From assembly GCA_018402305.1 (NCBI GenBank), contig JAGYJE010000013.1, forward strand, positions 50,790-82,789: 32,000 bases of DNA. Direction: 5' to 3'. This document shows positions 11,130-27,421 of this stretch, piece by piece (position 1 is the first letter of the stretch; the number at the start of each line of letters is the position of its first letter). The translations under genes were made by a program, and so were the position numbers. The notes under the pieces were generated by a model. That model was not told the origin of the DNA, did no database searches, and was given only the letters and a program-made list of their open reading frames with translations. Origin of the DNA: Puniceicoccaceae bacterium (lineage in GTDB: Bacteria > Verrucomicrobiota > Verrucomicrobiia > Opitutales > Coraliomargaritaceae).

Positions 11130-11170
11130 TTTTCTTGTCGTCCTTTTAAAATTCCTACAATATTTGCTCG

Positions 11171-11527
11171 ATGAAATTCAAAAAAATGTTCTTTTGCTGT
11201 GTTCCCCTTTTTCTGGGAATTGCGGATCTCGCCTCTGCGGCCGAGGCGATGACGGTCAGGATCAAGAGTGGTCGCATTCAGGAGTATGTGAACGGTTCGT
11301 TGAAGCGGAGCTACGGATCTAATCTCATCGATGCATCGACGGATGGCATCACAGTGGTGGGTGTCACCAAGGATGGTAAGGTCAAGGAGTATAAGAACGG
11401 CTCCCAGCGGCGTACGTTTGGCTCGAATGTGGTAAGGGTGCGGATCAGCGGTGGCACGGTATTTGCCGAACTCAAAAATGGCAAGACGGCCGAATACGTG
11501 AACGGCAGCCTTCGGCGCACTTTTTAA
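11171..11527 (+). CDS. Small secreted protein with three beta-hairpin-type repeats
   Basis: 118-aa ORF. The N-terminus MKFKKMFFCCVPLFLGIADLASAAEA looks like a signal peptide. Three repeats follow: GRIQEYVNGSLKRSYGSN, GKVKEYKNGSQRRTFGSN and GKTAEYVNGSLRRTF. It starts 41 nt after the WD40 gene stop. Confidence 0.6.
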   Translation: MKFKKMFFCCVPLFLGIADLASAAEAMTVRIKSGRIQEYVNGSLKRSYGSNLIDASTDGITVVGVTKDGKVKEYKNGSQRRTFGSNVVRVRISGGTVFAELKNGKTAEYVNGSLRRTF

Positions 11528-11555
11528 GTGTGAAACCATCATTCACGAACAGCAT

Positions 11556-12305
11556 ATGAAAAAAGCTTTTTTAATTACGGTCCCCATTCTGTTGATGGGT
11601 GGGGCGATACTGGTAACCAGCCATTTCAGCAAAAATCCGGAGCGTAATCTGGAAGTGGGCAAAACTTACGAAATTTGGTTGAAGGAGGCAGAGGTAACTC
11701 CTCTCGATCGCAATGGCGAAAAGTGGGATACCGATGGCAGTGCTCCTGACCTGCGCGGCATGATGAGCTGGCAGGGGCAGGTGGTTCTTCAAACAGTTGA
11801 AGCTTCGGACGGGCTGATCGCTCGGTGGAGCGATACAGCGGTCAGTGCATCGCAGGCCCTCAAGGGTGAGGTTGATACCCAATCCCTGCAAAGGGTGGGG
11901 CGTTTCAGAATGGATTCGAAAGGGTTCATCGAAATCGGCATTTTTGATGGTGATCTTGTCTCGTTTTCATTCGCAGGTGGATTTCGCATTCCGCTCTCCT
12001 CACTGAGGCTTGGGCACAATCGTGTGGATGGGAGTGGTGCTTTGAAGACAGTCGCGTTTCGGGTTTCGGAAAGCGACTCTCTTGAAGAGGATCATGGGTC
12101 AAATGCCGAGTGGAAATTGACGAATGGGGTGCTGGAGCTGATACAAGCGCCCGAGGCCATGAAGAGTGCCTCGGAGAGGCTTGTTGAACAGGCAGGTAAA
12201 TACACCGACAAGATCACTGACGAACTTCAAAAACAGGGCGAAGCATTGGGCGAGGAATTGGAGAAGGGCGTGAATGAGGCCATGAAGAACCTGAAGTTCA
12301 AGTGA
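11556..12305 (+). CDS. Membrane-anchored hypothetical protein (N-terminal TM, beta-rich middle, C-terminal amphipathic helix)
   Basis: 249-aa ORF. The N-terminus MKKAFLITVPILLMGGAILVTS is hydrophobic. The C-terminus ERLVEQAGKYTDKITDELQKQGEALGEELEKGVNEAMKNLKFK appears helical and charged. It starts 28 nt after the previous gene, and its stop overlaps the next gene's GTG. Confidence 0.6.
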   Translation: MKKAFLITVPILLMGGAILVTSHFSKNPERNLEVGKTYEIWLKEAEVTPLDRNGEKWDTDGSAPDLRGMMSWQGQVVLQTVEASDGLIARWSDTAVSASQALKGEVDTQSLQRVGRFRMDSKGFIEIGIFDGDLVSFSFAGGFRIPLSSLRLGHNRVDGSGALKTVAFRVSESDSLEEDHGSNAEWKLTNGVLELIQAPEAMKSASERLVEQAGKYTDKITDELQKQGEALGEELEKGVNEAMKNLKFK

Positions 12306-12799
12306 GCAGAGAGAGAAAATTTGCTGCGGTTCTGGTAATTCTTTCCTGCCTAGCTTTTGGCATGGCGCTGGTTTTTCCATTGTTTTCGATTCACCCGGCA
12401 GCTGGTCGCTGGACGGGCTTGGCCAAACTACTGGCTTCCGACCAGTTTGCATCCCGATCGTTTACCTTGATCGGCGGTATCATCATTCTGTGGAAGGAAA
12501 ATGAACGCATTCTTGCAGTCTTGATGGGCTTGATTTCGCTTGTCTTGCCGGCACTCAAGCTCTCCGTGCTATGGTGGGAAATTTTGCACCTCTCATCTCT
12601 CCCGGAAAGATTTTTGGCTTTTGTTCAAGCAGTCTCGCGCTACGCAATGGTGGAGGTTTTGCTCATTGCTCTGCTCGTCCTTGTGGTAAAAGGAATGCCG
12701 GGCGGCAGTGAATTCAAAATTCACGCCGGCACATGGTATTTTACCGCATCGGTGATTTTAAGTCTTTTTGCGAGCAGATGGGCGCTTGGTTCAAAGTGA
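12302..12799 (+). CDS. PqiA-like (paraquat-inducible protein A family) single-domain integral membrane protein
   Basis: 165-aa ORF with a GTG start at 12302 that overlaps the upstream stop (GTGA). It has four hydrophobic segments. The motif SLVLPALKLSVLWW....VSRYAMVEVLLIALLVLVVK....GTWYFTASVILSLFAS resembles the PqiA-domain pattern (P..K....; grWSMlDVFvvAlLValvK; G.w.F...Vil). Confidence 0.55.
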   Translation: MSRERKFAAVLVILSCLAFGMALVFPLFSIHPAAGRWTGLAKLLASDQFASRSFTLIGGIIILWKENERILAVLMGLISLVLPALKLSVLWWEILHLSSLPERFLAFVQAVSRYAMVEVLLIALLVLVVKGMPGGSEFKIHAGTWYFTASVILSLFASRWALGSK

Positions 12800-13237: not shown

Positions 13238-13609
13238 ATGGAAATCAGAAAAGGAACGGGTTCAAGCGTGCTCTTAAACATCAGAGGGGATGAAATCAGA
13301 GAAGGAACGGGATCAAAAACTCTGCTTAATATCAGAGGAGACGTAATCAGGGAAGGGACTGGCTCGTCCGTAATCATGAATCTCCGTGGAAATGATATTC
13401 GAAAAGAAACCGGTTCATCAACTTTATACAACATCAGAGGAGACGAACTTCGAAAGGGAACTGGAAGCACTGTTCTTTTCAATATTCAAGACGAAGATAT
13501 AAGAAAAGGAACTGGATCGACCGTATTATACAATACAAAAGGTGGTCGTCTTGGAGGAATTCAATTAGCAGCTGTTCTATATGCGCTAAGAGAGATTCAA
13601 GCTCATTGA
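13238..13609 (+). CDS. Small cytoplasmic repeat protein, six 17-aa beta-hairpin-type repeats (IRGDEIRKGTGSSVLxN)
   Basis: 123-aa ORF in an AT-rich islet. It contains six tandem units: EIRKGTGSSVLLN, IRGDEIREGTGSKTLLN, IRGDVIREGTGSSVIMN, LRGNDIRKETGSSTLYN, IRGDELRKGTGSTVLFN and IQDEDIRKGTGSTVLYN. There is no signal peptide. The periodic amino-acid conservation argues for real coding. Confidence 0.6.
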   Translation: MEIRKGTGSSVLLNIRGDEIREGTGSKTLLNIRGDVIREGTGSSVIMNLRGNDIRKETGSSTLYNIRGDELRKGTGSTVLFNIQDEDIRKGTGSTVLYNTKGGRLGGIQLAAVLYALREIQAH

Positions 13610-14311: not shown

Positions 14312-14460
14312 TGGTGAGGATGTCTATAGTCACCAGTGCCGCTATCGATTGGCGAAGTTGAGTTTATTTAACTGATTCCACATCATATCCCAATTTCCCG
14401 ACGTGGTTGATAAATGTGGCTTCCATCCGAGACTTCATCCAAACCTTGTAAATTTTACCA

Positions 14461-16923
14461 ATGCCCACTCCATCCCGACTCGTCCGCGTCTTTATCAGCT
14501 CCACCTTCCGCGATTTCATCCAGGAGCGGGACGAGTTGGTGAAGAAGGTGTTCCCCGAGCTTCGGCGTCGGGCGAAGGAGCGTTTTGTGGAAATTTTGGA
14601 GGTGGATCTGCGCTGGGGGATTACCGAGGAGCAGGCGAAGGGGGGCGAGACTTTGCGCATTTGTCTTGAGGAAATCGATCGGTGCCGACCGAGCGCACCG
14701 GTCTTCTTCATTGGATTGCTGGGCGAGCGTTACGGATGGATTCCGGAGAAAGACTACTTCAAGCCCGATGTTTTGGAGGATCCCAAGCTGGGATGGGTCA
14801 AAGAGCACATTGTCGAGGGCAAGAGCGTGACCGAACTTGAGATTCTGCACGGTGTCTTGCGCAATGATGAGATGCGCGACAAGGCATACTTCTACTTCCG
14901 TCAGGACGGCTACGAGCAGAGGCACTGGAGCAAGATCGAGAAGCATCACGCCGCCGCGAACCCTCCGATCACCCGGGAGGATTTTACCAATGCCAAATCA
15001 GAAAATCCCGAGGCCGATGAGGAGAAGCAGCGGGATCTGAAGCGCCGGATTCGCGATACCTCCTTGCAGTGGGATCCCAAAGACTACGAGACGCCGGAGG
15101 ATCTTGCCGCACTGGTCGCATCGGATCTTTGGGATGCCATCGATCGTTTGTTTCCGATCAGCGCTGTTCCGGATGCGCTCGAACGCGAGAGTCTCGAGCA
15201 CCGCGTGTTCATGGAGAGTCGCACCCGGGCGTATGTTGAGCGGGAAGGGCTTTTTGAGAAACTGGACGAATTTTTCCTCCTGCCCAACCAGGCATTCAGG
15301 CAGGAAACTTCAGCAGATGAAGCCGAACAGGAAGAGGAAGATGAACCGGATTCCGCACCCACTCCCCCGTCTGTCCGCGTTGTCCTGGGTGAGTCGGGTA
15401 GCGGCAAAAGCGCGCTGCTTGCCGCATGGCTGAAGCGTCGGGATGAGGATGTGGCGTTTTTTCATTTCGTAGGATCGACTCCATCGAGCGTCTCCGCATC
15501 CTCTTTATTGCGGCGCATGCTTGCCACGTTGCGCAGCAGGGGAGTCGTGCCGGCTTCCGAGGCGATTCCTCATGCTGACGAGGCAATGGCCGAGCTGCTT
15601 CCTTTTTGGCTGGAGAAGCTATCGGAGCGGGGCGGGGGCATCCTGCTGTTTGATGCGGTCAACCAGCTCGGCTCGGCGCGCGACCGCGAGCTTTGGTGGT
15701 GGCCGGACAAATGGCCGGAAAACATTCGTGTCGTTTTCAGCACGCTGCCGGGTGACTCACTCCGTGCGATGGAAAAGCGCGGTTGGAAGGGCGAAGAGTT
15801 CGTGTTGCGCATTCCGCCATTCCAGCCCGAAGAGAAGCGCGAAATGATCAACCGTTACATGAAGGATCTGTTCGCCCGCGAGATGGAGGCGAACCTTCAA
15901 CAACTCATCCTAAACGCACCGCAGACTTCCAACCCACTCTTCCTGCGCACCGTGCTTGATGAATTGCGCGTGCGCTCGGCCTTCGGCACGCTCGAGAAAG
16001 ACCTCGATGAGATGCTGAGTTGTCCTGACCCAGCGGCACTCTTCGTCCATGTGTTGAAAAATCTTGAACGGGATTTCTCTCCTCCTGAGCATCCGGATCT
16101 GGTTCATCGCGCTCTTGGTTTGATGGGAGTGGCTTTGCGCGGACTTTCCGAAAACGAAATCCTGCAGCTTCTCTCCGCGTCGCCCTATCCTTCTGGCGAG
16201 CCTCTTCCGCGGCACTACTGGGCACCTCTCTATCTCGCTCTGGAGGAGTCACTGGTAAGCCGCGAGGGACAACTGAGCTTCTTCCACGATTACCTGCGCT
16301 CTGCCATCTGGCGTGAATATCTCGACGAGGACCACGAGCTTGAGACAGCCCATGCCAGACTTGCTGAGACCGTCACCCGCTGGCGGGAGCCGGATGCCTT
16401 CGGATCAAGCCTCCGCGCCTATGGCTTCGAATACGGGATCCGCCATTTGCTTGACATACGGCGGGTCGATGATGCCACGGATATGATTTTGGATCAAAAC
16501 TACCGCCGCCGGGCTGTCGAAAGCACCAGGCAGGCATCCGCAATCGAGGAGGATGTCTCTCGCCTTCGGCGTGCAGTGGCTTTACAGGCAAATTTCAGTC
16601 ACGAAGTGGCTGCCTTGCTTACCATCCAGGCTCTCGTCGGAAAAACGGAACCCGAGTGCCATCTGCGTAGCCGACTCGATGCAGCCGCTGCCAGCGGAGA
16701 TTGGGAGGAGGCTCTCGGAATTGCCGGTGCTCAGGAGGACAATTCACTCCGCATCCTTCTCGCCTGCCGGGCGCTGCTCCAGTCCCCGGGTGTTCTTTCC
16801 GAAATCCAGAGTGGCCAGATCAGCGACGTCACCCATCGTTGGGCAAAAGCCACAGGCAAGCCCGAGTGGGAAGAAGCAATCCACCTGGTGCTTGAAGTCA
16901 AATCACAACCCTCATCCCCATAA
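14461..16923 (+). CDS. NLR-like protein: DUF4062-like N-terminal module + NACHT-type NTPase + alpha-helical C-terminus, with no repeat sensor domain
   Basis: 820-aa ORF. The N-terminus reads MPTPSRLVRVFISSTFRDFIQERDELV..VDLRWGITE..FFIGLLGERYGW..GKSVTELEILHGVL..YFYFRQ. Walker A is VVLGESGSGKSALLAAW and Walker B is ILLFDAVNQL. The motifs IRVVFSTLPGD and SNPLFLRTVLDELRV follow. No WD40, TPR, LRR or HEAT periodicity is visible in the last about 300 aa. Confidence 0.9.
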   Translation: MPTPSRLVRVFISSTFRDFIQERDELVKKVFPELRRRAKERFVEILEVDLRWGITEEQAKGGETLRICLEEIDRCRPSAPVFFIGLLGERYGWIPEKDYFKPDVLEDPKLGWVKEHIVEGKSVTELEILHGVLRNDEMRDKAYFYFRQDGYEQRHWSKIEKHHAAANPPITREDFTNAKSENPEADEEKQRDLKRRIRDTSLQWDPKDYETPEDLAALVASDLWDAIDRLFPISAVPDALERESLEHRVFMESRTRAYVEREGLFEKLDEFFLLPNQAFRQETSADEAEQEEEDEPDSAPTPPSVRVVLGESGSGKSALLAAWLKRRDEDVAFFHFVGSTPSSVSASSLLRRMLATLRSRGVVPASEAIPHADEAMAELLPFWLEKLSERGGGILLFDAVNQLGSARDRELWWWPDKWPENIRVVFSTLPGDSLRAMEKRGWKGEEFVLRIPPFQPEEKREMINRYMKDLFAREMEANLQQLILNAPQTSNPLFLRTVLDELRVRSAFGTLEKDLDEMLSCPDPAALFVHVLKNLERDFSPPEHPDLVHRALGLMGVALRGLSENEILQLLSASPYPSGEPLPRHYWAPLYLALEESLVSREGQLSFFHDYLRSAIWREYLDEDHELETAHARLAETVTRWREPDAFGSSLRAYGFEYGIRHLLDIRRVDDATDMILDQNYRRRAVESTRQASAIEEDVSRLRRAVALQANFSHEVAALLTIQALVGKTEPECHLRSRLDAAAASGDWEEALGIAGAQEDNSLRILLACRALLQSPGVLSEIQSGQISDVTHRWAKATGKPEWEEAIHLVLEVKSQPSSP

Positions 16924-16931
16924 ATTCCGCC

Positions 16932-19007
16932 ATGCCAAAGATCACCATTCGTTTTACGCAAGACTCCGTTCCACTTGAGGAGGAAAGAGATTTCTACTTA
17001 GACCTCTTTCGATCGCTAGGGCTGAAGTCTAGGATGCTTTTTGATGAGCAGGAGTTTGAGATAACTGCTCAGACAAAAGTGACCTTGTTTGGTATGGAGA
17101 CATCGGTTCCACAAGGTCTCCAGACGGAGAGATCTTGGGTCTGCCGCCTAATCGAAAAGGAGGGTTTCCTCCTTTTCTCTGTGGGGGGCTGGTTCTGGGC
17201 CGCTTCGTTGAAAAATTCAAATCACTTGAAAAAGTCATCTCACCCCGAGGAGATGATAGCAAAACTTCCTGTTGATTTACGGGTTCTGTCTTTAAAACAG
17301 TCAAACGAAGTGAATGACCTCCGGTCGCTTTCTAGTCTGAGCAGTCTGACCAGCTTAAATCTAGATAATTGCTGGAGAGTGACCGATATCTCTGCGCTTT
17401 CTGGTTTGAGCAATCTGACCAGCATAAATCTTTCTTGCTGCAGACTGACCGATATCTCTGCGCTTTCTGGTCTGACCGGACTGACCAAATTGGATCTATC
17501 AGCGAACTATCTTATTGAAGATTTTTCCCCACTAGAGGGACTAATTGCTCTAGAAAATTTAAATTTATCTGCAACTGGAGATATTCTGTCACAACAAGAT
17601 TTATTTGTTATTTCCAAACTCACCTCTCTTACCAAACTCAATTTGAGAAGGGGTGGCAGTCGTTATGAGATAAAAGACTTGTCGTCATTATCATGCCTTA
17701 CGAATTTGACTAACTTGGATTTATCCGATTTTGCAGCTATTACAGATTTATCACCACTGTCGTGTCTTAAAGCACTTACCGTATTAAACTTAACAGATTG
17801 TATATCAATAAAAGATATATCACCTTTATCTGATTTGACAGCGCTGCGTGATCTAAAGCTTTTTGGTTGCAACTCAATCACCAAACTAGACCCAATAGGC
17901 AAAATACCCTCGTTAGAGGAATTGAAATTTACCAGCAGACGGATCAAGAGTGTTGAATCGCTGAGGAATATCCCAGCATTGCGTGAAGTCACAGAATTCA
18001 ATCCTCCAGAGGTAGCAGAGCTTCTAGCCCATACAGCCTACTTACGCTCAGACCGAGATTGCATTAAGTGGTATTCTAAGGATTGGTTGAAGGAGGCTAA
18101 AGATTGGAGAGAAGACACAAGCTCACTACAAGACCGTTTCGCCGCCACACTGGGCGAGGCCTTCAGCCTGCTGGGTGAGGATTCGATTGCAGAGGACTAC
18201 GAGGCATTCTTGGATGGTCGCCCTGATTTTTCATCCGCCCCATGGAAGGCTTGGTTTGGGGGAACGCTCAAGGAAAGTGGTTTTGTCCTCTACCGCCAGC
18301 GTGTGGAGCGTGTGGCGGTGAGCCAAATGCTCCCCAGCGCGATCGGTGGCGCCTGCTCGACACTGCCTTATGAAGATCAGCCTGAATGGTCGCGCGAATG
18401 GCTGATGTCACTGGAGATCGCCTGCTTGAGCGATGCCAAAAAACTTCTCTCCGTTGCTCCAGAGATCTGCCTCGCTCACGCCAGGTTGGATTTAAGCGAA
18501 GCCCTGCGCCGATGGTTGGAAGCGTTCACCGATCCCTCCGACCCAGGTGCTCTGGATCCTGTTCATGCCGCTCTTGCGGGGTTCCAGCTTGCCTTGAACC
18601 ACCTCGATGCCGCCGAGTCACATATTTTTGCTATAGAGTCGCCCAGTCTAAAGGACCCAATGCTAGCCAATCTCATTTCCTCCTATCCAGCAACCGATTC
18701 CGATCGCGCCTCTGCGCAACTGCTTCTCATCGCAGCTCCTGCCACCCGTCGCGAATTGGCCAAAACTCTGGTCACGATACCGGAGTATTCGATGTCAGAA
18801 GTTGCCATGCAGCGCTTGGTCGTTGCCATGGATGATTCTCCCGAAGCGCTTGGCGAACTCATCGCCCTCCTTCCCCCATCCGCCGCCCCATCCCAGCTCA
18901 TCCAGCAAATCTCCGCCTCCTTACAACTCGACCGCCAATCCACCCTTCGTAAAATCAGTGATGAGCTGCACCAGCAGGCAGATCGCCTGCTGATCCTAAA
19001 AAAATGA
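16932..19007 (+). CDS. Leucine-rich-repeat protein with alpha-helical C-terminal half
   Basis: 691-aa ORF starting 8 nt after the previous stop. About 10 LRRs of 22-26 aa lie between about aa 115 and 340. Examples are LSSLSSLTSLNLDNCWRVTDISALSGLSNLTSINLSCCRLTDISALSGLTGLTKLDLSAN and LSCLTNLTNLDLSDFAAITDLSPLSCLKALTVLNLTDCISIKDISPLSDLTALRDLKLFGCNSI. The C-terminal 340 aa appear helical. Confidence 0.85.
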   Translation: MPKITIRFTQDSVPLEEERDFYLDLFRSLGLKSRMLFDEQEFEITAQTKVTLFGMETSVPQGLQTERSWVCRLIEKEGFLLFSVGGWFWAASLKNSNHLKKSSHPEEMIAKLPVDLRVLSLKQSNEVNDLRSLSSLSSLTSLNLDNCWRVTDISALSGLSNLTSINLSCCRLTDISALSGLTGLTKLDLSANYLIEDFSPLEGLIALENLNLSATGDILSQQDLFVISKLTSLTKLNLRRGGSRYEIKDLSSLSCLTNLTNLDLSDFAAITDLSPLSCLKALTVLNLTDCISIKDISPLSDLTALRDLKLFGCNSITKLDPIGKIPSLEELKFTSRRIKSVESLRNIPALREVTEFNPPEVAELLAHTAYLRSDRDCIKWYSKDWLKEAKDWREDTSSLQDRFAATLGEAFSLLGEDSIAEDYEAFLDGRPDFSSAPWKAWFGGTLKESGFVLYRQRVERVAVSQMLPSAIGGACSTLPYEDQPEWSREWLMSLEIACLSDAKKLLSVAPEICLAHARLDLSEALRRWLEAFTDPSDPGALDPVHAALAGFQLALNHLDAAESHIFAIESPSLKDPMLANLISSYPATDSDRASAQLLLIAAPATRRELAKTLVTIPEYSMSEVAMQRLVVAMDDSPEALGELIALLPPSAAPSQLIQQISASLQLDRQSTLRKISDELHQQADRLLILKK

Positions 19008-19029: not shown

Positions 19030-21657
19030 ATGACCACACCATCCCGCACTGTCCGCGTCTTCCTCAGTTCCACCTTCCGCGATTTCGCCGAAGAGCGGGA
19101 TTTGCTAGTGAGGAAGGTTTTTCCTGAATTGCGTCGAAAGTGCCGGGAGCGGCAAGTCGAGTTAGTGGACGTGGACCTGCGCTGGGGTATCACAGAGGAA
19201 GAGGCCCAGCAGGGCAAGGTGCTACCGATCTGTCTCGCAGAGATCGACCGCTCACGGCCTTATTTCATTGGCTTTCTCGGGGAACGCTATGGCTGGATTC
19301 CTGATCAATCAGAGTATGACCTCTCACTCCTGTTAGAGCAATCGTGGCTGGAGGAGCACAGGGGAGGCACAAGTGTCACGGAGTTGGAAATCCTTCACGG
19401 CGTGCTCAACAATCCCCAGATGGCCGGGCGGGCCTTGTTCTATTTCCGCGATCCAGCCTGGTCGGAAGGAAAGGGCGAGGCATATGCGAGCGAGAGCGAT
19501 GACGAAAAAGCAAGAGTCTCCTCGCTGAAAGACCGGATCCGAAAAAGCGGGTTTCCCGTGGTTGAGGACTACCCCGACCCCGAGGCGTTAGCAGAGCGCG
19601 TGCGGGAAGACCTTTGGCAATGGATCGATGAGACTTTTCCGGAGGATTCCGTGCCTGACTCGCTGACACGCGAGAGGTTAAAGCACGAGGCCTACAGCGC
19701 ACCCCGGCAACGTCTCTACATCGGTGGCGAAGAGTATTTTAAGGCCTTGGATAAGGCGATGAGTGCGCAGAATTTTCTCCCTGTGCTGGTTACCGGTCAG
19801 TCCGGCGGTGGCAAGAGCGCCTTGCTTGCCAACTGGGTTCCTCGCTGGAGCAATCTACACCCGAAAACCTCGGTGATCCTGCATCACCTCGGCGCCGGAG
19901 CTGATGCGGCGGACCCGGTGCGGATCGTGGTGCGTCTGATACAGGAAATCGCCTGCCTGACCGGAGATGAATTCAAGCCGGAGAGCGATCCGGAGAAACA
20001 ATTGGAGGAATTGCCCCAATGGTTGGCGCTGGGCAGTGCTTGGGCAGAGCGGGAAGGGCGTGAACTGCTGCTCGTGCTGGATGGGTTGGACAAGGTATCA
20101 GACCTGAAAGACCTGCGGTGGTTCCCGTCATTCCTGCCGGCAAAGGTGAAGCTGGTGGTGTCCTGTCTTGAGGGGACGATTCTGCAGGCTGCGAAAGGTA
20201 GATTGGAATGGAGGGAAATCGAAGTTAAGCCCTTCACACCCGCCGATCAGTTGCGCTTTATTGGTGAATACCTGCTACGCTTCCGCAAATCGCTCACGCC
20301 AACACAAACCAGTATCCTACAAGGACATCCCCTGAGTGGTAATCCGATGTTTCTACTGACCGTGCTGGAGGAGTTGCGGGTGTTCGGCATGCATGGGCAG
20401 TTGGACCAACGCCTGCAGAAACTGCTATCTCCGCCACTAAGCAAGGGCAAAAGCGAGGCGCCGACGGTGGACGACGTGTTTGAGCATGTGCTGGCCCGGA
20501 TTGAGGAAGACCTCGGCAAGCAAGTGGTTAAGGCTGCCGTGGAAGCGATCTGGGCGAGTCGTGGTGGATTGTATCGGGAGGAGTTGTTAGGGGTGGCACA
20601 GTTGACGCCAGCCGCTTGGGCGTCGCTGCAGATCGTGCTGGATGAAGGACTCTACGAAAGCGGCGGGCGGATCAATTTCGGTCACGACTACCTGCGCAAG
20701 GCGGTGGAAGACCGCTACGACCTCACGGGCGAACGGAAAATAAATCTGCACCGACGCTTGGCCGAATATTTCGCCACCCTGCCGGTGGATGCGCGAGTGG
20801 CCGAGGAGCTCCCGTGGCAGTGGGAACAGGCAAGTAATCGAAAGAAACTCAAAGCGTGTCTGACTGACCTCGAGCTGTTTGCGGCAATGATGAATCGCAA
20901 CGAATATGAACTGTTGGGCTATTGGCTGCGTCTTGGATGCGACATTAGCACAGAGTATGAGACAGCTTGGCTTCAGTGGGAGCTTGAAGGAGAAATAATG
21001 GCATCAATCGGGGCAGGTCTGGCAAATTTTCTTCATACAGCTGGCCGATACACGACGTTTGCGCCGTGGATTCAGGAAGAAGTGCTGCAGTTGAGGCGTG
21101 AGAAACTTGGCATTGAGCATCCGGATACGCTGAGCGCGATGGGTAATCTCGCCCTTTACTACTCGGATGCGGGTCGACTGGAGGAGGCGCTGTGGATTCA
21201 GGAAGAAGTGCTGCAGCTGATACGTGAGAAACTTGGCATCGAGCATCCGGATACGCTGAGCGCGATGGGTAATCTCGCCAGATCCTACGCGCATGCCGGT
21301 CGGCTGGAGGAGGCGCTGGGGCTTTGGGAAGAAGTGCTGCAGTTGAGGCGTGAGAAACTTGGCTTCGAGCATCCGGATACGCTGCGCGCGATGAACATCC
21401 TCGCCGGCTGTCTGAACGCCCTCGATCGCCGATCTGAATCTATTACATTGCTTCGCAAAGCATCGGCGGAGTCTTCTCTCGTTTACGACGGCGTTGCCTA
21501 CAATCTCGCCTGCTACGAATGCCTCGAGGGCAATCACGAGGAAGCTAGGCGCCTAATCTCTGAGCACCTCAAGCTGCATCCAGAAAAGAAAGAGCAAGCC
21601 CTCGCGGATGAGGATTTTGCGGCGATTCACGATTGGATTTCTGAACTTGAGGTATAG
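19030..21657 (+). CDS. NLR-like protein: DUF4062-like N-terminal module + NACHT-type NTPase + KLC-type TPR repeats
   Basis: 875-aa ORF. The first 81 aa are identical to the 5658 gene product. Walker A is VLVTGQSGGGKSALLANW and Walker B is LLLVLDGLDKV. The motifs VKLVVSCLEG and GNPMFLLTVLEELRVFG follow. There are three 42-aa TPRs (WIQEEVLQLRREKLGIEHPDTLSAMGNLAxxYxxAGRLEEAL). The C-terminal cap YNLACYECLEGNHEEARRLISEHLKLHPEKK is nearly identical to that of the 3328 gene. Confidence 0.9.
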   Translation: MTTPSRTVRVFLSSTFRDFAEERDLLVRKVFPELRRKCRERQVELVDVDLRWGITEEEAQQGKVLPICLAEIDRSRPYFIGFLGERYGWIPDQSEYDLSLLLEQSWLEEHRGGTSVTELEILHGVLNNPQMAGRALFYFRDPAWSEGKGEAYASESDDEKARVSSLKDRIRKSGFPVVEDYPDPEALAERVREDLWQWIDETFPEDSVPDSLTRERLKHEAYSAPRQRLYIGGEEYFKALDKAMSAQNFLPVLVTGQSGGGKSALLANWVPRWSNLHPKTSVILHHLGAGADAADPVRIVVRLIQEIACLTGDEFKPESDPEKQLEELPQWLALGSAWAEREGRELLLVLDGLDKVSDLKDLRWFPSFLPAKVKLVVSCLEGTILQAAKGRLEWREIEVKPFTPADQLRFIGEYLLRFRKSLTPTQTSILQGHPLSGNPMFLLTVLEELRVFGMHGQLDQRLQKLLSPPLSKGKSEAPTVDDVFEHVLARIEEDLGKQVVKAAVEAIWASRGGLYREELLGVAQLTPAAWASLQIVLDEGLYESGGRINFGHDYLRKAVEDRYDLTGERKINLHRRLAEYFATLPVDARVAEELPWQWEQASNRKKLKACLTDLELFAAMMNRNEYELLGYWLRLGCDISTEYETAWLQWELEGEIMASIGAGLANFLHTAGRYTTFAPWIQEEVLQLRREKLGIEHPDTLSAMGNLALYYSDAGRLEEALWIQEEVLQLIREKLGIEHPDTLSAMGNLARSYAHAGRLEEALGLWEEVLQLRREKLGFEHPDTLRAMNILAGCLNALDRRSESITLLRKASAESSLVYDGVAYNLACYECLEGNHEEARRLISEHLKLHPEKKEQALADEDFAAIHDWISELEV
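21067..21444 (+). repeat. Tandem 126-bp coding repeats (3 copies) encoding TPR units
   Basis: Units start at 21067, 21193 and 21319. The string caggaagaagtgctgcag(t/c)tga..cgtgagaaacttggcat.gagcatccggatacgctgagcgcgatgggtaatctcgcc is almost identical in copies 1 and 2. Confidence 0.9.
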
Positions 21658-21676
21658 ATTGAACAGGCCTGCCACC

Positions 21677-24600
21677 ATGTCCACTCCATCCCGCCTCGTC
21701 CGAGTTTTCATCAGTTCCACCTTCCGTGACTTCATGGGAGAGCGGGATGAACTCGTGAAGCGTGTGTTTCCTGAATTGCGACGTCGATGCAAGGACCGGT
21801 TCGTCGAGATCGTCGAGGTTGATCTCCGTTGGGGCATCACCGAGGATCAGAGTCGGGAGGGGGCAACCCTGAAAATCTGCCTTCAAGAAATCGACCGTTG
21901 CCGTCCGAGCGCCCCGGTTTTTTTCATAGGATTGCTCGGTGAGCGCTATGGCTGGGTTCCGCCGAATGATTACTATCCGACGGAGATTCTGGATGATCCG
22001 GAACTGGCGTGGGTGCGGGAACACATCGGAGGCAAGAGTGTCACCGAACTGGAAATCCTCCACGGAGTGCTCAACAATCGGAATCTGAAAGACCATGCCT
22101 TTTTCTATTTCCGTCAGGATGGTTACCAAATCCGTCACTGGGCGCGGATCCATCAGGATTATCCGGATCTGGTGCCGGAAGATTTCACTAACGAGCGCGA
22201 ATCCGACCCAGTATCAGCGCGCGCCAAACAAGATTCACTCAAAGAAAGGGTAAATCAAGCCGATCTCAGTCATGCTCCGCGGCTCTATGAGGAACCCGGA
22301 GAACTCGTTCGGATCGTGCTGGAGGATCTCTGGCTCCAGATTGAGAGGGTTTTCCCCGCGAGCGAGGTCCCCGACGAGCTTGAGCGAGAACGCCTCGACC
22401 ACGAAGCCTTCGCAAAAAGCCGACTTAAGGGATATGTGAGGCGGCCCCTCCTTCTTCATGCGCTGGACGAGATCCTCGACCCCGGAGGTCCTTCCATCAA
22501 GGTCGTTACCGGCTCCTCTGGCGGAGGGAAAAGCGCGTTGCTAGCCTACTGGGTGGACCTGCGGTCGGACCGCATTCCACCCTGCACCTTCGTGCATTTC
22601 ATCGGCGGAACACCGGAAAGCGGCACGTTGCCGAATCTGGTGTTTCGACTCATGCGGACGATCCAGCGCTGGGGTGCAGTCCAGGACCGGGTGCCCGACG
22701 ATCTGTCCGAGGCGATCGCGGCTCTTCCGCAATGGCTTACGAGGACGGTGCAGGCCCATGGAGAGGTTCTCATTGTTCTCGATGCGCTCAACCAACTGGA
22801 GGAGGAGAGCGCACATCAGCTGTCCTGGCTACCTGCAGAAAACATTCCCGGGGTGCGTTGGGTGGTAAGCACACTCCCAGGTCTCTGTCAGGATGCCCTA
22901 ACGATAAGAGGGTGGGCGACTTCGCGTTATACCGTCGAAGTTCCTCCTCTCGAGCGCGGGGAGCGGGCCAGCATCGTCGAGTCCTATCTCGCGCTTTTCA
23001 CGAAGCGACTCGATGTGCGTCTGGCGGAGCGGCTCGCTGCGTCACCCCAATCGGAAAACGCCCTATTCTTGAAGGTCGCGCTCGACGAATTGCGGATTCG
23101 AGGCCGTCACGAGGCCCTCGAAGAACTGATCGACCGCATCCTCGCCTGCCCAGGCCCTGTCGATCTGTTTGTCCTCGTTCTGAAAAGTCTTGAGGAATTC
23201 GACAAGGATCGGCCTGATCTTGTCCGCGAATCGCTCGGGTTGCTCTGGGTGGCGCGACGCGGTCTGACTGAAACCGAACTCCTCCAGCTTCTTTCCGGCC
23301 ACGAGAATCCCGCAACCCACCCTCTACCGCGCGCTCTTTGGTCCCCAATCTTTTTAGCACTTGAAGGTTCTCTCGTCGAGCGCAACGGGCGTTTGAGCTT
23401 TTTCCATGATTTTCTCAGAGAAGCGGTCGCGCGTGAATACCTCGACGAGGAATGGGAGCGGCACAGGGTGCATTCCCGTTTCACCACATTGGCTCGCCGA
23501 TTGTTGAACGGAAAGTCGGCTGGGGCAACCCTCGATCACTATCTGGCTCGGTATGCCAGTCATCACGCGGGTGCCCTCGGGGATTTACCAGCGTTGGCAG
23601 AATTCGCCGTCTCCTTCGCGCCTTCTCGGTTTGAGATGCTCTCACTTTCCGAGGGAGTTTTATTGGTATCGGAGGCCTGTATGACCCTTGGGGTCTCAGA
23701 TAAATTTAGCGACGATCCCAGATTTCTCAGCGACGTTGCCGTTCTCCTTGAAACGGCGCGCGCACCAGAGATTACCCGTTCCATTTGCCGTAAGTTGATC
23801 CGGGCCGGGAACGGGTGGCGAGAGGCCTTCCAAGGGGCGGGACTCGATGGACGTGGAGCCACCTATGTCTTCGCCGCAGAGTGGGCTGCGTGGATCCAAG
23901 AACTTCCGCCGCAACAAGCAGAAGAAGAAATCGAGTTCATCATCGAATCGATGGATGACATCGATGGCGGTCTTGCTCAAGCGGCAATCTACGCTTTTAA
24001 ATACGCGATCATTGCAAATCCCGAGCGCTTCACGATCAGTCTCCTCGAGCAGGTCTTTAGTGGTTGGCAGGAAAACCGTCTCATGCTGAACAACCTCGTG
24101 ATGCAACTGGCCATCGATGGTCTCCATCTGCCGGTGGTGGATGACTTCGAGCGTTTCTGGAGCGTGACATGGGAATACAACGCGGTCGAACTCGACTTGC
24201 TGAAGGGCGCCCTCGCTTTCCGCAACCTACCCAGTCCCCATCGGGATGAGGTTGCAGCTGAGTTCTTTCGACATCTCGAGCAAAGGCGCTCTGGTTTTCA
24301 ACTTACGCCGGACTGTTTTGCATCGCGCCGTATCTTAGACTGCTTTTGGTCGCTGGGCCAGACAGGAGACAGCCTTTCGGATGACCTGAGGACTTGCCTC
24401 CGCGAGCGGCATGGTCAGGAAATCTTGGAACTGCTGCTAGAATCTCCGTTTTGGGAGGTGGGTGAAAAGGCTGCCGAAGTGCTCTCCGAGAAGATGGACT
24501 TGTGCGAGGCGATGCGTGACCGCATCCGCGATCTGGCCCTTGACGTGGATGGAGCTCCCGCCTATGCCGTCTTTATTGCCTATTCCCTATGGGCCTTGCG

Positions 24601-24985
24601 TGCTGGGGAAACTGAGGATTATCTGCATCTCGTTGAAGCTTGTTCCCTTTCATCGAATTGTCAGGTCCGCGGCCAAGCTGCCGAATCGCTCATGTCCTTC
24701 CTACGAGACTGCGGCGACGGTAGCCTCGGAGATTATTTCTCAAAGGCCCTTCCGTCGCTGCGGCGCTTCTTGCATGATTCCGACATCTGGCCAGTTCAGG
24801 AAACCCTGCACAACCTCCAGTCGCTTGACGACCGCCTCGCCATTGCAGGGATCGATTGGCGGAGTCATCTCCGCCCCGATCATGCGCCGCTCGTCTCCCT
24901 CGTTGGCGAGTGGGAGGCGATCGGACCGGATTGGATGAAGTTTGAAGAAATCGCACGAATCCGACAACAGCAGGCCATTCCCTGA
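21677..24985 (+). CDS. NLR-like protein: DUF4062-like N-terminal module + NACHT-type NTPase + long helical region ending in HEAT-like repeats
   Basis: The ORF is open from 21608. ATG 21677 gives MSTPSRLVRVFISSTFRDF, aligned with the three paralogues, and leaves 19 nt after the upstream stop. Walker A is IKVVTGSSGGGKSALLAYW and Walker B is VLIVLDALNQLEE. The motifs VRWVVSTLPGL and ENALFLKVALDELRI follow. The C-terminus has HEAT-like motifs: SPFWEVGEKAAEVL, SSNCQVRGQAAESL and DSDIWPVQETLHNL. Confidence 0.85.
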   Translation: MSTPSRLVRVFISSTFRDFMGERDELVKRVFPELRRRCKDRFVEIVEVDLRWGITEDQSREGATLKICLQEIDRCRPSAPVFFIGLLGERYGWVPPNDYYPTEILDDPELAWVREHIGGKSVTELEILHGVLNNRNLKDHAFFYFRQDGYQIRHWARIHQDYPDLVPEDFTNERESDPVSARAKQDSLKERVNQADLSHAPRLYEEPGELVRIVLEDLWLQIERVFPASEVPDELERERLDHEAFAKSRLKGYVRRPLLLHALDEILDPGGPSIKVVTGSSGGGKSALLAYWVDLRSDRIPPCTFVHFIGGTPESGTLPNLVFRLMRTIQRWGAVQDRVPDDLSEAIAALPQWLTRTVQAHGEVLIVLDALNQLEEESAHQLSWLPAENIPGVRWVVSTLPGLCQDALTIRGWATSRYTVEVPPLERGERASIVESYLALFTKRLDVRLAERLAASPQSENALFLKVALDELRIRGRHEALEELIDRILACPGPVDLFVLVLKSLEEFDKDRPDLVRESLGLLWVARRGLTETELLQLLSGHENPATHPLPRALWSPIFLALEGSLVERNGRLSFFHDFLREAVAREYLDEEWERHRVHSRFTTLARRLLNGKSAGATLDHYLARYASHHAGALGDLPALAEFAVSFAPSRFEMLSLSEGVLLVSEACMTLGVSDKFSDDPRFLSDVAVLLETARAPEITRSICRKLIRAGNGWREAFQGAGLDGRGATYVFAAEWAAWIQELPPQQAEEEIEFIIESMDDIDGGLAQAAIYAFKYAIIANPERFTISLLEQVFSGWQENRLMLNNLVMQLAIDGLHLPVVDDFERFWSVTWEYNAVELDLLKGALAFRNLPSPHRDEVAAEFFRHLEQRRSGFQLTPDCFASRRILDCFWSLGQTGDSLSDDLRTCLRERHGQEILELLLESPFWEVGEKAAEVLSEKMDLCEAMRDRIRDLALDVDGAPAYAVFIAYSLWALRAGETEDYLHLVEACSLSSNCQVRGQAAESLMSFLRDCGDGSLGDYFSKALPSLRRFLHDSDIWPVQETLHNLQSLDDRLAIAGIDWRSHLRPDHAPLVSLVGEWEAIGPDWMKFEEIARIRQQQAIP

Positions 24986-25080
24986 ATCACGATAAATATC
25001 GGTTGCCGTCAGATCAAACTTAGATGCAGGATTGTCGGGTTTTTGGCCCCATTGTATTTTAATCCTCACAGACTAACCTC

Positions 25081-26805
25081 ATGATACCCCGCACTTCCAT
25101 CATTCTGCTGGTTCTCTCCTCGGTCTGCTCCTTCGTGGCCGCCTTCATCGGCTTTGGTGGGGTGGGGGAGGATTACTCGATCGCGACGCGCGCTTATATG
25201 GCTCTGCAGTTGTTCACCCTCGAAGGTGGGGATATCTCCGGTTCGGTTCCGCTCGGTGTGGAGATCGCGCGCTGGTTAGCTCCAGCGACAACCCTCGGTG
25301 GTATCTATGCCGCAGCCCACGCGTTTTTCTCAAAGCTTTGGGGCAGCTTACGGCTTCGCTGGATACGTGGCCACATGGTGGTCTGTGGAGGAGGTGAGAA
25401 AGGATGCGCGCTTGCCTCTGAGCTTGCTCAGGAAAGTGGCGCGCAAGTGGTGCTGGTTGATCCGCTGGAATCGCCGGCCATAGACGTTTTACGCAAGCAA
25501 GGGGTTCTGGTGATTCAGGGTGACGGAGGTGATTCCGGAGTCATGCAAGAGGTCGGTCTTTCGCGTGCCTCACGCTTGGTCTGCGTGACCGGGGACGATC
25601 GCACCAATATTGGCATCACGTTGGCTGCGGCGGAATCGTTGCCAGCAGAACGTGCATCGCAGCCTCTTGAGATCCACACCCACGTGAGCGATGTCGCAAG
25701 CCGCAATATCCTGCAACGAAGCCAGATGCTGGATTTGAAAAACGATCTCAGGCACCGCATCCGCCTATTCAATTGTCATGCCAACCGGGCGCGTCTCGCT
25801 CTCGAGGAATGTCCTTTGGAATGGGATTCACGCACCGGCCTTCGCGACCAAGAAGTCCATCTCGTTCTCGGTGTCTTAGGCCTTCTTGAAAAGGCGATGG
25901 TGGTTCAAGCTGCGCACATCGGGCATTTTCGTCACGGCGGCAAGCTGCGCGTGCATCTTGTGTCGATACGTGCCAAGTCTGACGAGTCGGCCCTGATCAA
26001 GGAGTATCCCGGCTTCCGCAACTGCGCAAATTTGGATTTTACCACGCTCGAGGAGTCCGATGACTTCGTGGAAACCGTGGCAAAAGCCGCGTCCTGCTGG
26101 GGCGGTAATTCATTGATCACGGTGCTTCTCGGCGGAACGCCCGAAGCCGCTTTGGCCGATGCCTTGTTGCTTGGCGAGCGGCTTAAAAATGGCCCGTGTC
26201 TCCGAGTGCTGATCGATACGAAAGGCAATGGCGGGATTCGCAGCATCGTGGCTAAAAACCCCAAGCTCATCTCATGGATCAGATTCCTCCCAGAGCTGAC
26301 TGCTGCGGTCGGGAGAAATGCCGTATTTCAGGAATCGCTCGACGCCGTCGCCCGTAGGATTCATGAAACATGGAAGGAAGGCACCGATCAGCGAATCCTC
26401 AAAGCCGAGTCAGAGGGTGACCTTGAAACCGCCAAAAAACACCGTGAAAAAGACACCTATCGTAGCTGGGAGGATCTCACCGAGGAGCAGAAAGATGCCA
26501 ACCGGCTCGCTGCGGATCACATCTCCGTCAAGTTTCGCGCCGTAGGCCTCGATCCGGATCTTGGGTCTTCACTGCCCACGGCCTGGGACGACCTTGATGC
26601 ACAACAACTCGACATGTTAAGCCGCATGGAACACGAGCGCTGGGCTGCCCCGTTGTGGATGGCTGGATGGACCGCTGGCGAACGCAACGACGAACTGAAA
26701 ATTCATCCCAACCTTGTGCCCTATGATGAGCTCGACGTGGGAACCAGAAAGTATGACCTTGAACAGGTCATGATGGCGGTGGCGTATCGAGTTGGATTAA
26801 AATAA
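25081..26805 (+). CDS. Membrane protein: N-terminal TM segments + Rossmann (TrkA-N-like) NAD-binding domain + two RyR-type domains
   Basis: 574-aa ORF. Hydrophobic segments are SIILLVLSSVCSFVAAFIGF and IARWLAPATTLGGIYAAAHAFF. A glycine-rich Rossmann motif reads HMVVCGGGEKGCALASELAQESGAQVVLVD. The C-terminus has ARRIHETWKEG.....YRSWEDLTEEQKDANRLAADHISVKFRAVGL and MEHERWAAPLWMAGWTAGERNDELKIHPNLVPYDELDVGTRKYDLEQVMMAV. These match the bacterial RyR-domain pattern (iHe.W..., GW.yGe.rd...k.hP.LvpydeL....K.yD) as I recall it. Confidence 0.7.
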   Translation: MIPRTSIILLVLSSVCSFVAAFIGFGGVGEDYSIATRAYMALQLFTLEGGDISGSVPLGVEIARWLAPATTLGGIYAAAHAFFSKLWGSLRLRWIRGHMVVCGGGEKGCALASELAQESGAQVVLVDPLESPAIDVLRKQGVLVIQGDGGDSGVMQEVGLSRASRLVCVTGDDRTNIGITLAAAESLPAERASQPLEIHTHVSDVASRNILQRSQMLDLKNDLRHRIRLFNCHANRARLALEECPLEWDSRTGLRDQEVHLVLGVLGLLEKAMVVQAAHIGHFRHGGKLRVHLVSIRAKSDESALIKEYPGFRNCANLDFTTLEESDDFVETVAKAASCWGGNSLITVLLGGTPEAALADALLLGERLKNGPCLRVLIDTKGNGGIRSIVAKNPKLISWIRFLPELTAAVGRNAVFQESLDAVARRIHETWKEGTDQRILKAESEGDLETAKKHREKDTYRSWEDLTEEQKDANRLAADHISVKFRAVGLDPDLGSSLPTAWDDLDAQQLDMLSRMEHERWAAPLWMAGWTAGERNDELKIHPNLVPYDELDVGTRKYDLEQVMMAVAYRVGLK

Positions 26806-26821
26806 GGAATCAATTAAGAAA

Positions 26822-27421
26822 ATGCTCTGGAGTAACAACAAACTAATCGAGTTAATAGAAACTGACGATTTTGAAAAATTTGAGAAGGAATTCTCCAAGA
26901 AAAAAGACAAGACGGAGAGAACTCGCTATCTGAAATTTCCAGATTGGACTTATCTGCATATTGCCTGCAATAATAAGGCACTGGGAGTTGTTAAATCCAT
27001 ATTTAAGATATTTTCAGATTTCCCGGTGGATATCCAAGACGAACGAGGTATGACGCCTCTCCTAAGAAGTATCGCCAAGGAGGATTTCGAAACGGTCAAA
27101 TACTTGATCTCCAGAGGAGCTAGCCTGGATGTAACGGTCAATAACGATGTCAAAGTCATTCATTACGCGATACAGAATGGTAATCCGGATTTGCGGACTT
27201 TCTGTATCAATGAATACGGCCCACACAATCTGGACAATCTGGCTTATCTATCCATAGCTCAAATTTTGAATGTGCAGGAAATAATGCGGCTGAAGACTTT
27301 AGGGGTTGAGTTTGATCCTGCCAAATTAAAAGAGATTATCATACGAGTGATTTTATCTGATGATAACGAAGAGCACATCCTTGAAAACCTTCATTATTTT
27401 CTCGATCAAAAATTAAAATGA
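26822..27421 (+). CDS. Ankyrin-repeat protein
   Basis: 199-aa ORF starting 16 nt after the previous stop, in an AT-rich islet. ANK-like units are YLHIACNNKALGVVKSIF, ERGMTPLLRSIAKEDFETVKYLISRGASLDV and VIHYAIQNGNPDL. Confidence 0.7.
   Translation: MLWSNNKLIELIETDDFEKFEKEFSKKKDKTERTRYLKFPDWTYLHIACNNKALGVVKSIFKIFSDFPVDIQDERGMTPLLRSIAKEDFETVKYLISRGASLDVTVNNDVKVIHYAIQNGNPDLRTFCINEYGPHNLDNLAYLSIAQILNVQEIMRLKTLGVEFDPAKLKEIIIRVILSDDNEEHILENLHYFLDQKLK

Follow-up and report, generated by a model that had tools for sequence, protein, structure and literature searches.

We analysed a 32,000-nucleotide (nt) stretch of a Puniceicoccaceae bacterium genome (assembly GCA_018402305.1, contig JAGYJE010000013.1, positions 50,790 to 82,789), here called the window, and in particular two adjacent genes near its middle, gene 1 and gene 2 (Table 1). 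Gene 1 encodes a protein of 820 amino acids (aa) with a DUF4062/NIR domain, a NACHT-type STAND NTPase and a conserved helical tail, and gene 2 encodes a leucine-rich repeat (LRR) protein of 691 aa. Gene 1 ends with a TAA codon (16921-16923), gene 2 starts with an ATG after 8 nt, and the two are in different reading frames. An earlier reading of the DNA, made without database searches (the sequence-only reading), had described a split pair formed by a NACHT gene and an LRR gene 8 nt further on, and its coordinates and gene content were correct. [quoted passage not shown] Here a stop codon and the 8-nt gap lie between the two parts, which are separate in all loci except a single one, L012. The same earlier reading had proposed a two-polypeptide NLR with a detachable LRR subunit, and this proposal is supported by conserved linkage in two gene orders, by one natural fusion, by the co-occurrence of two domains, the tail of gene 1 and the C-terminal domain (CTD) of gene 2, and by hypervariability confined to the LRR array.

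The N-terminal domain of the gene 1 product carries the marks of a NADase effector. DUF4062 (PF13271) matched residues 9-97 with 53 bits, the cut-off being 24.7, and the domain contains F11, S122-V-T124-E125 and W52..E57-Q58, with E125 as the candidate catalytic glutamate. F11, S122, T124, E125, W52 and Q58 are invariant or nearly so in 34 orthologues (alignment A2). The A2 profile of the first 225 residues matched the solved TIR-like domain of human TEP1 (11gz_A, E-value 3.4e-36), with the SVTELE of gene 1 aligned to the SVTEME of TEP1. The residues F11, S-x-T-E and Q/W/E correspond to DUF4062 motifs described in recent preprints, in which the DUF4062/NIR domains of PsAvs2, Swarozyc, Vulcan and Vesta are reported to act as NADases and as effectors against phage (bioRxiv 10.64898/2026.05.01.722283; 10.64898/2026.09.04.749371); conserved DUF4062 motifs are also reported for another anti-phage family in the Evangelion preprint (2026). 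According to the 2026 preprints, NIR domains are enriched beside defence genes and defend in several tested systems, and NAD+ depletion with abortive infection is a demonstrated output of NIR/DUF4062 defence proteins.

This domain is followed by a P-loop NTPase core, matched by NPHP3_N (PF24883, the NACHT module of nephrocystin-3) with 26.9 bits against a cut-off of 24.8, and by NPHP3_hel at residues 472-572; no Pfam match was obtained over residues ~570-820. The Walker A motif, GESGSGKS at residues 310-317, is invariant in the 34 orthologues. The Walker B motif, ILLFDAVNQ at residues 394-402 (window 15640-15666), is atypical, and its D398, A399, N401 and Q402 are likewise invariant. Among the paralogues in the window, the one starting at 21608 has a Walker B of the D-A-V/L-N-Q type as well (aa 387-396), and those starting at 19030 and 5658 have D-G/A-L-D-K. 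Because its Walker B is DAVNQ, we filed the gene 1 product as NACHT-related (NPHP3/TEP1-like STAND) and not as a canonical NACHT protein. It is 36-47% identical to its paralogues over ~650 aa; the Pfam NACHT cut-off is reached by paralogue 19030 and missed by 0.2 bits in paralogue 21608. In JGI the NACHT proteins are annotated as nephrocystin-3. Its orthologues form ~65 full-length clusters of 780-850 aa, none of them LRR-fused. More distant relatives covered only ~77-85% of the gene 1 product, with TPR or unknown C-termini in place of the tail.

The gene 2 product is built from an N-terminal domain of ~100 aa (N-domain), about 10 LRRs and an all-helical CTD of 355 aa. LRR_4 matched above the gathering threshold, with 93.8 bits in six stretches and repeats from about residue 113 to 335, and LRR_8, LRR_EndoS and LRR_R13L1 also matched; no Pfam match covered residues 1-110 or 336-691. 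The AlphaFold model of the CTD is an alpha-solenoid of 19 helices with a predicted local distance difference test score (pLDDT) of 94. W438, W441, R457, W486, W490 and T533 are invariant in the CTD. Foldseek comparison of the CTD with PDB and BFVD, and of the gene 1 C-terminus with PDB, gave no match at E<=1e-3, only generic TPR/HEAT-like superhelices at TM<=0.4, and the sequence search of PDB with the CTD was empty. The CTD has 101 representatives among 1.84 billion proteins. It was seen only C-terminal to LRRs, and it forms the C-terminus of all listed representatives whose length allows a judgement; among those with a mapped match the largest has 1139 aa. The gene 2 family itself comprises ~78 clusters at 90% identity, in all of which an N-domain precedes LRRs in a variable array and the CTD is very conserved, and no NACHT Pfam match was found in any of them.

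The proposed counterpart of the CTD in gene 1 is the tail, a short folded helical-hairpin domain of ~160-190 aa. Paralogues 19030 and 21608 align with the gene 1 product only to about aa 640-660. The AlphaFold model of residues 561-820 is all-helical and made of helical hairpins, with a pLDDT of 88 overall and above 90 in the tail. The tail was seen only in NACHT proteins with an LRR-CTD partner; the tail-less paralogues in the loci examined have fused TPR, fused WD40 or Pfam-blank C-termini, and none has an LRR-CTD gene of its own. The claim that gene 1 is the only paralogue lacking a repeat array had to be dropped, the 1125-aa paralogue being equally free of Pfam repeats in its C-terminal part. 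A cryptic repeat sensor in the gene 1 C-terminus, considered in the same earlier reading, was not seen: the tail is short, conserved and homologous across the two classes of loci defined below. As it is conserved and not variable (91% identical between the window and its close relative L018), the tail is unlikely to be the specificity determinant, and its conservation across classes appears to fit a docking platform better than a sensor. Homology of the tail to the CTD or the N-domain, as expected for homotypic docking, was tried with hhalign and rejected. BLASTP likewise gave no resemblance between the Pfam-blank C-terminus of paralogue 21608 and the LRR protein.

In order to follow the two genes across genomes, hidden Markov models (HMMs) built for NACHT core, tail, N-domain and CTD were run on the six-frame open reading frames (ORFs) of all loci retrieved. 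In the class to which the window belongs, class A, a core-plus-tail gene is directly followed by one LRR-CTD gene, or by two, in all 17 loci with upstream sequence (the window, the P0002 contig, L001, L003-L005, L007-L012, L014, L018, L020, L022 and L023). The junctions range from -8 to +21 nt (-8, -4 four times, +5, +7, +11 and +21, besides +8 in the window), many of them being ATGA overlaps. In the window both genes are on the same strand, and they matched the tail HMM with 4e-58 and the CTD HMM with 9e-172. All class-A genomes with names are Verrucomicrobiota metagenome-assembled genomes (MAGs) of Akkermansiaceae, Verrucomicrobiaceae and Luteolibacter, and the class is rare, with 7 loci found in one genome each of 185,579 species. 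The adjacency of NACHT-tail and LRR-CTD genes is far beyond chance. Indeed, the expectation that homologues should be adjacent or fused elsewhere was borne out both ways, by this adjacency, shared by the five loci of class B described below, and by the fusion in L012.

In L012 (Verrucomicrobiota MAG ELA508) a single ORF of 1610 aa at 7589-12418 runs from the NACHT core and tail through the N-domain and LRRs to the CTD, and another LRR-CTD gene, not fused, comes after it. At the junction, ...RAALAGRPVKS is continued directly by DDFKAFLYSLGLT..., and ~40 residues of the tail end and ~20 of the N-domain start are gone. This loss therefore indicates an in-frame deletion and not a single-base slip. 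The CTD tree places L012 among its unfused relatives L010 and L011, and the fusion is accordingly derived. It came from the genome scan and is the only one found, the fused form being absent from the best 120 NACHT homologues, from the ~78 LRR-CTD clusters and from the 101 CTD representatives; with a single MAG as its source, it may also be a mis-assembly. Since the lone fusion is derived and no other occurs among the CTD representatives, the split state is stable and ancestral. The alternative offered at the outset, a fission product or pre-fusion intermediate, does not agree with an old and stable split and one recent, derived fusion.

CTD relatives at 24-30% identity are again LRR proteins with a CTD. 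One distant relative, in L014, has the class-A arrangement. In L015 and L017, with CTDs of 24-26% identity, the LRR-CTD gene lies directly upstream of a gene for a NACHT protein of ~860 aa without DUF4062, the arrangement that we call class B. This NACHT family, with a DGLDE Walker B, comprises ~110 clusters from sources that include Pseudomonadota and Planctomycetota, none of them LRR-fused. Three further members (35-44% identity, one from Ignavibacteriaceae), picked solely on the length of available sequence, have the LRR protein directly upstream with a 4-nt overlap in 3/3 cases. The reversed order with a 4-nt overlap is thus found in 5/5 class-B loci, and the CTD is present in all class-B partners (E 5e-11 to 3e-37). 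The N-domain HMM, built from alignment A1, matched class-A partners and none of the class-B partners. By hhalign the class-A and class-B tails are related (98.5%, E 2.1e-15, 138 columns), as are the NTPase cores (98.0%, E 1.5e-13), and the controls (tail against CTD, against N-domain and against class-B N-terminus) all remained at <=1.2%. The class-B N-terminus, ~300 aa long and conserved, differs from that of class A and contains the motif FRNxYAHG (Rx4H). It recalls HEPN ribonucleases and would represent a different effector on the same tail/LRR-CTD chassis. The class-B NACHT proteins with this domain are encoded at 3658-6228 in L015, 10103-12685 in L017 (the partner gene there being 8001-10106) and 2066-3160 in L016. 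Because effector, partner N-domain and gene order change and tail and LRR-CTD stay together, we propose that the tail and the CTD dock on each other.

The variation between close relatives is concentrated in the LRR array. The NACHT genes of L018 and L019 are 95% identical to that of the window, and between the window and L018 the identities are 96% in the core, 91% in the tail, 78% in the N-domain, 84% in the CTD and 88% in a nearby TrkA_N-RyR protein. The LRR segment measures 231 aa in the window and 474 aa in L018, and is 50% identical where alignable. At the DNA level (blastn) the match is 94% over 14425-17356 and 88% over 17979-18993, and collinearity is lost over 17356-17979, to which 10407-11774 corresponds in L018. 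A 69-nt tandem unit, detected with Tandem Repeats Finder, is present in 18 copies in L018 against 2.4 detectable copies in the window, and among homologues the repeat number ranges from ~10 to more than 30. In the core of the array GC content is 0.35-0.42 and GC content at third codon positions (GC3) is 0.36, against 0.55-0.66 in the flanks and the rest of both genes. The GC3 dip recurs in L001 (0.31) and L014 (0.42) and not in L003, L004, L005 or L011; import of a cassette from a lower-GC donor and mutation bias in repeats are candidate causes. Wherever NACHT and partner were compared on shared contigs, the NACHT protein was the more conserved (NACHT/partner identities 93.5/85%, 95/86%, 71/53%, 64/51%, 60/43% and 58/40%). 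Several loci carry two LRR-CTD copies in tandem behind one NACHT gene; a single ancient duplication was considered for these and rejected, the CTD tree showing mostly lineage-specific duplications. From the array being the only hypervariable segment of the locus and the gene being repeatedly duplicated, we infer that the LRR protein is the sensor.

Taken together, these results make it highly probable that the two proteins work together. That they are two subunits of one NLR-like immune receptor, acting by the mechanism that follows, we consider probable on balance. Gene 1 would be hub and effector, with a NIR NADase, an NTPase serving as oligomerisation switch and the helical tail, and gene 2 would supply what one-chain NLRs carry at their C-terminus, an LRR array plus the CTD. 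The CTD would dock non-covalently on the NACHT tail, placing the LRR arc in the position of a fused sensor, from which it would hold the NTPase off. Binding of a phage molecule, or of one from another invader, to the hypervariable LRR surface would release the switch, the NACHT modules would oligomerise and bring the NIR domains together, and hydrolysis of NAD+ would stop the growth of the infected cell (abortive infection). In such a receptor, since the sensor is a separate chain, it could be duplicated and its repeats reshuffled without touching the hub. Autoinhibition, NAD+ depletion and anti-phage function are the steps that we infer on top of the genetic evidence. More tentatively, the tail and the CTD could be a dedicated, ancient docking pair of a widespread modular NLR-like family with a detachable recognition chain. 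One hub, with a NIR NADase in Verrucomicrobiota and another N-terminal domain in other phyla, could then take up interchangeable LRR sensors that diversify independently. Among prokaryotes such a family would correspond to the sensor/helper NLR networks, with a sensor devoid of its own NTPase.

Several observations weigh against this receptor model. All related loci come from metagenomes or MAGs. The binding of tail and CTD is deduced from their co-occurrence, the CTD could be strongly conserved for a role other than docking, and the L012 fusion, in which tail and N-domain are joined, is uninformative on the contacting surfaces. A fast-varying LRR array would equally fit a decoy or a regulatory role, and the low GC3 of the array is restricted to some lineages. 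The NTPase is also unusual. NACHT (PF05729) scored 19.2 bits in gene 1, below the cut-off of 26.7. In the NACHT Walker B signature D[GAS]hDE the aspartate is followed by a small residue and then by two acidic residues (Kibby et al., bioRxiv 10.1101/2022.07.19.500537); gene 1 has the small residue, and both acidic positions are replaced, by N401 and Q402. Judging from these residues, the NTPase may bind nucleotide without hydrolysing it, and the switch would possibly be unlike that of textbook NLRs. Finally, PADLOC-DB v2, including its Avs and bNACHT-type models, returned zero families for either protein at E<=0.01, and NCBIfam gave nothing for the gene 1 product and only sub-threshold internalin-type LRR matches for the gene 2 product.

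The pair could also form one system in which the LRR-CTD protein, instead of being the sensor, serves as negative regulator, clamp, decoy, guardee or adaptor for assembly, with sensing left to the tail, the NTPase or a host factor. Linkage indeed shows co-function and not division of labour, and hypervariability is no proof of sensing, as pathogen targets can evolve fast too. The tail, being folded and helical-repeat-like, could bind ligands; bacterial NACHT proteins with short extensions, such as the bNACHT01 clade, are reported to defend alone (Kibby et al.), and bNACHT25 is described as sensing via the host DnaJ. We nevertheless regard this alternative as rather unlikely. It sits poorly with a tail that is conserved in close loci and homologous across classes, and with variability that is restricted to the LRR array; that the LRR-CTD gene was duplicated repeatedly behind one NACHT gene fits a wider specificity better than a single inhibitor, and in the L012 fusion the LRRs are placed where a sensor canonically lies.

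A housekeeping or developmental signalling module, for instance an NPHP3/NWD1-like scaffold, would be consistent with the lack of a PADLOC defence model, with the nephrocystin-3 annotation at JGI and the non-immune roles of eukaryotic NPHP3 and NWD1, and with a non-acidic Walker B, which is odd for a firing switch. Such a function is improbable in view of the invariant NADase catalytic motif, of the proximity of NIR domains to defence genes and the protection they confer in several tested systems according to the preprints, of the patchy distribution (the 7 loci mentioned above), and of the setting among STAND paralogues and TIR, FRG and HEPN genes; hypervariable repeats and an effector swapped in class B are both typical of conflict systems. 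An 8-nt gap with a change of frame also resembles a broken gene, and defence genes cluster without joint function, so we considered whether the split is an artefact or a product of decay, that is a sequencing frameshift, a recent fission pseudogene or a chance neighbourhood of unrelated defence-island genes. The split is, however, kept in all loci of class A (17) and class B (5), in both gene orders and with CTD identity as low as 24%; start codons are proper, and stop codons overlap with start codons. Both ORFs are intact, the NACHT C-terminus and the CTD are constrained and predicted with confidence to fold, and no fusion appears among the ~65 NACHT clusters, the ~78 LRR-CTD clusters or the 101 CTD representatives, L012 being derived. 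An artefact is thus very improbable, and the broken-gene or frameshift reading is rejected because the split is conserved everywhere examined.

The two-chain receptor favoured here has partial parallels in known systems. Human TEP1, NWD1, NWD2 and NPHP3 share the N-terminal DUF4062 and NACHT arrangement and differ in having WD40 or TPR repeats fused on the same chain, which brings them closer to paralogues 19030 (TPR) and 5658 (WD40) than to the split pair. In animal NAIP-NLRC4 and in plant paired and NRC-network NLRs, recognition and execution lie on two polypeptides, and one executor can serve several sensors; in these sensor/helper pairs each partner is a complete NLR that has a NOD module of its own. 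Unlike them, the putative sensing chain of the window has no NTPase and consists only of N-domain, LRRs and docking-type CTD. STAND NTPases are described in surveys of the Aravind laboratory as typically coupled to LRR, WD or TPR repeats within one polypeptide. Bacterial bNACHT proteins (Kibby et al.) resemble the pair in that a NACHT-type STAND NTPase is central, the N-terminal effector is an enzyme and the sensor logic is of the repeat type. Some of them, such as bNACHT16, are reported to carry fused LRRs, whereas the LRR module of the window is a separate, strictly linked gene with a conserved CTD; their Walker B follows D[GAS]hDE, against DAVNQ in the window, where the NACHT protein ends in a dedicated tail.

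PsAvs2, Swarozyc, Evangelion, Vulcan and Vesta have the same effector domain and the same catalytic glutamate motif as gene 1. In these NIR systems either the sensor is described as part of the effector chain itself (Avs2 has TPR, Vulcan HEAT and Swarozyc an auxiliary domain) or the second gene is an enzyme (a phosphatase in Vesta), and neither an LRR partner gene nor the NACHT tail was found in the available text of the NIR/DUF4062 preprints. Operon-encoded STAND systems of several chains are also on record, namely CARD-NLR/LypABC (PMC13236601) and NLR-amyloid effector pairs (bioRxiv 10.1101/2020.01.06.895854). As far as these sources describe them, their effector is a separate chain and the repeats are fused to the NTPase, the reverse of the window, where the effector is fused and the repeat module separate. 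In the literature covered, which is incomplete, so that a prior description is possible, we found no published operon of a NACHT protein with an LRR-CTD partner in trans.

NLR receptors of animals, plants, fungi and bacteria have been described as single chains, and the bacterial splits detach the effector. If the proposed mechanism is true, NLR receptor logic can do without a covalent link between sensor and switch, and the pair would offer a natural system to study how a repeat sensor controls a STAND switch, through a tail-CTD interface that can be mutated or swapped. It would also suggest re-targeting receptors by exchanging the small LRR gene. The pair connects LRR-based sensing with the DUF4062/NIR NADase effector, which human TEP1, NWD1 and NPHP3 share; it also enlarges the list of candidate defence systems by the tail and the CTD, both uncharacterised, and by a multi-phylum sister class.

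Table 1. Features of the window. Positions are counted from its first letter; roles are those proposed in the text.
Feature	Position	Strand	Content and basis
IS66 transposase remnant	647-1783		Weak
AAA_16-TPR protein	3328-5661		777 aa, STAND-type; upstream of the pair
NACHT-type protein with WD40 repeats	5658-11129		1823 aa, very long WD40 array; N-terminal ~570 aa match the NACHT-core HMM, 1e-153
PqiA-like fragment	12302-12799		
Bflower_3 protein	13238-13609		Small, 6-fold beta-flower; just upstream of the pair, in a low-GC stretch (0.39-0.46)
Gene 1, proposed hub/effector subunit	14461..16923	+	820 aa; DUF4062/NIR TIR-like NADase domain, NACHT-type STAND NTPase, helical domains, conserved tail
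NIR/DUF4062 domain	14482..15135	+	~aa 8-225; Pfam, motifs, TEP1 match
STAND/NACHT-type P-loop NTPase core	15358..15870	+	~aa 300-470; Pfam NPHP3_N, AAA_16 and NACHT matches
NACHT tail	16438..16911	+	aa 660-817; conserved helical-hairpin domain, proposed docking platform
Spacer, gene 1 stop to gene 2 start	16924..16931	+	8 nt
Gene 2, LRR-CTD subunit	16932..19007	+	691 aa, ATG at 16932; proposed trans-acting specificity/sensor subunit
N-domain	16932..17243	+	aa 1-104; moderately conserved within class A (alignment A1)
LRR array	17268..17936	+	~10 units of ~23 aa, LxxLxLxxCxxLxDIsxLsgLxx; Pfam and translation
Hypervariable low-GC core of LRR array	17356..17979	+	No collinear match to L018 (blastn)
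CTD	17937..18995	+	aa 336-688; strongly conserved all-alpha solenoid, proposed partner of the NACHT tail
DUF4062-NACHT-TPR paralogue	starts 19030		875 aa; Pfam
DUF4062-NACHT paralogue	21608-24985		1125 aa; Pfam-blank C-terminus of ~470 aa
TrkA_N-RyR protein	25081..26805	+	574 aa; TrkA_N (NAD-binding Rossmann) and RyR, Pfam
Ankyrin protein	starts 26822		In the same-strand run
Protein with FGE-sulfatase domain	28645-30555	-	636 aa

The pair stands in a run of genes on the same strand, the others starting at 3328, 5658, 19030, 21608, 25081 and 26822, in a window that by Pfam is rich in other STAND NTPases. The FGE-sulfatase domain is a type counted among the 'antigen receptor-type' sensors of bacterial NACHT proteins. 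A promoter and terminator scan of 13-28 kb gave counts within chance and was uninformative. Compared with close relatives, the window has the two DUF4062-NACHT paralogues at 19030-24985 inserted; the TrkA_N-RyR gene directly follows the LRR-CTD gene in L018/L019 and the P0002 contig. Window 25075-26851 matched L018 12877-14654 at 89.7% (blastn). Of the 14 class-A loci with enough flank, 11 have a TrkA_N-RyR homologue no more than 10 kb from the pair, often as the very next gene. It is clear in L003, L004, L005, L009, L011, L018 and the P0002 contig, divergent in L001, L008 and L012, and absent from the class-B loci examined; the protein had no PADLOC match. It may be an accessory or downstream component beside a NADase-armed receptor, its membership in the system being putative. 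The flanks of L001, L004, L005 and L027 contain further genes of conflict type, namely for TIR/ThsB_TIR and FRG-domain proteins, CsgG fusions (TIR_2-CsgG and HEPN_STY4199-CsgG), IceA2-like small proteins and PcfJ.

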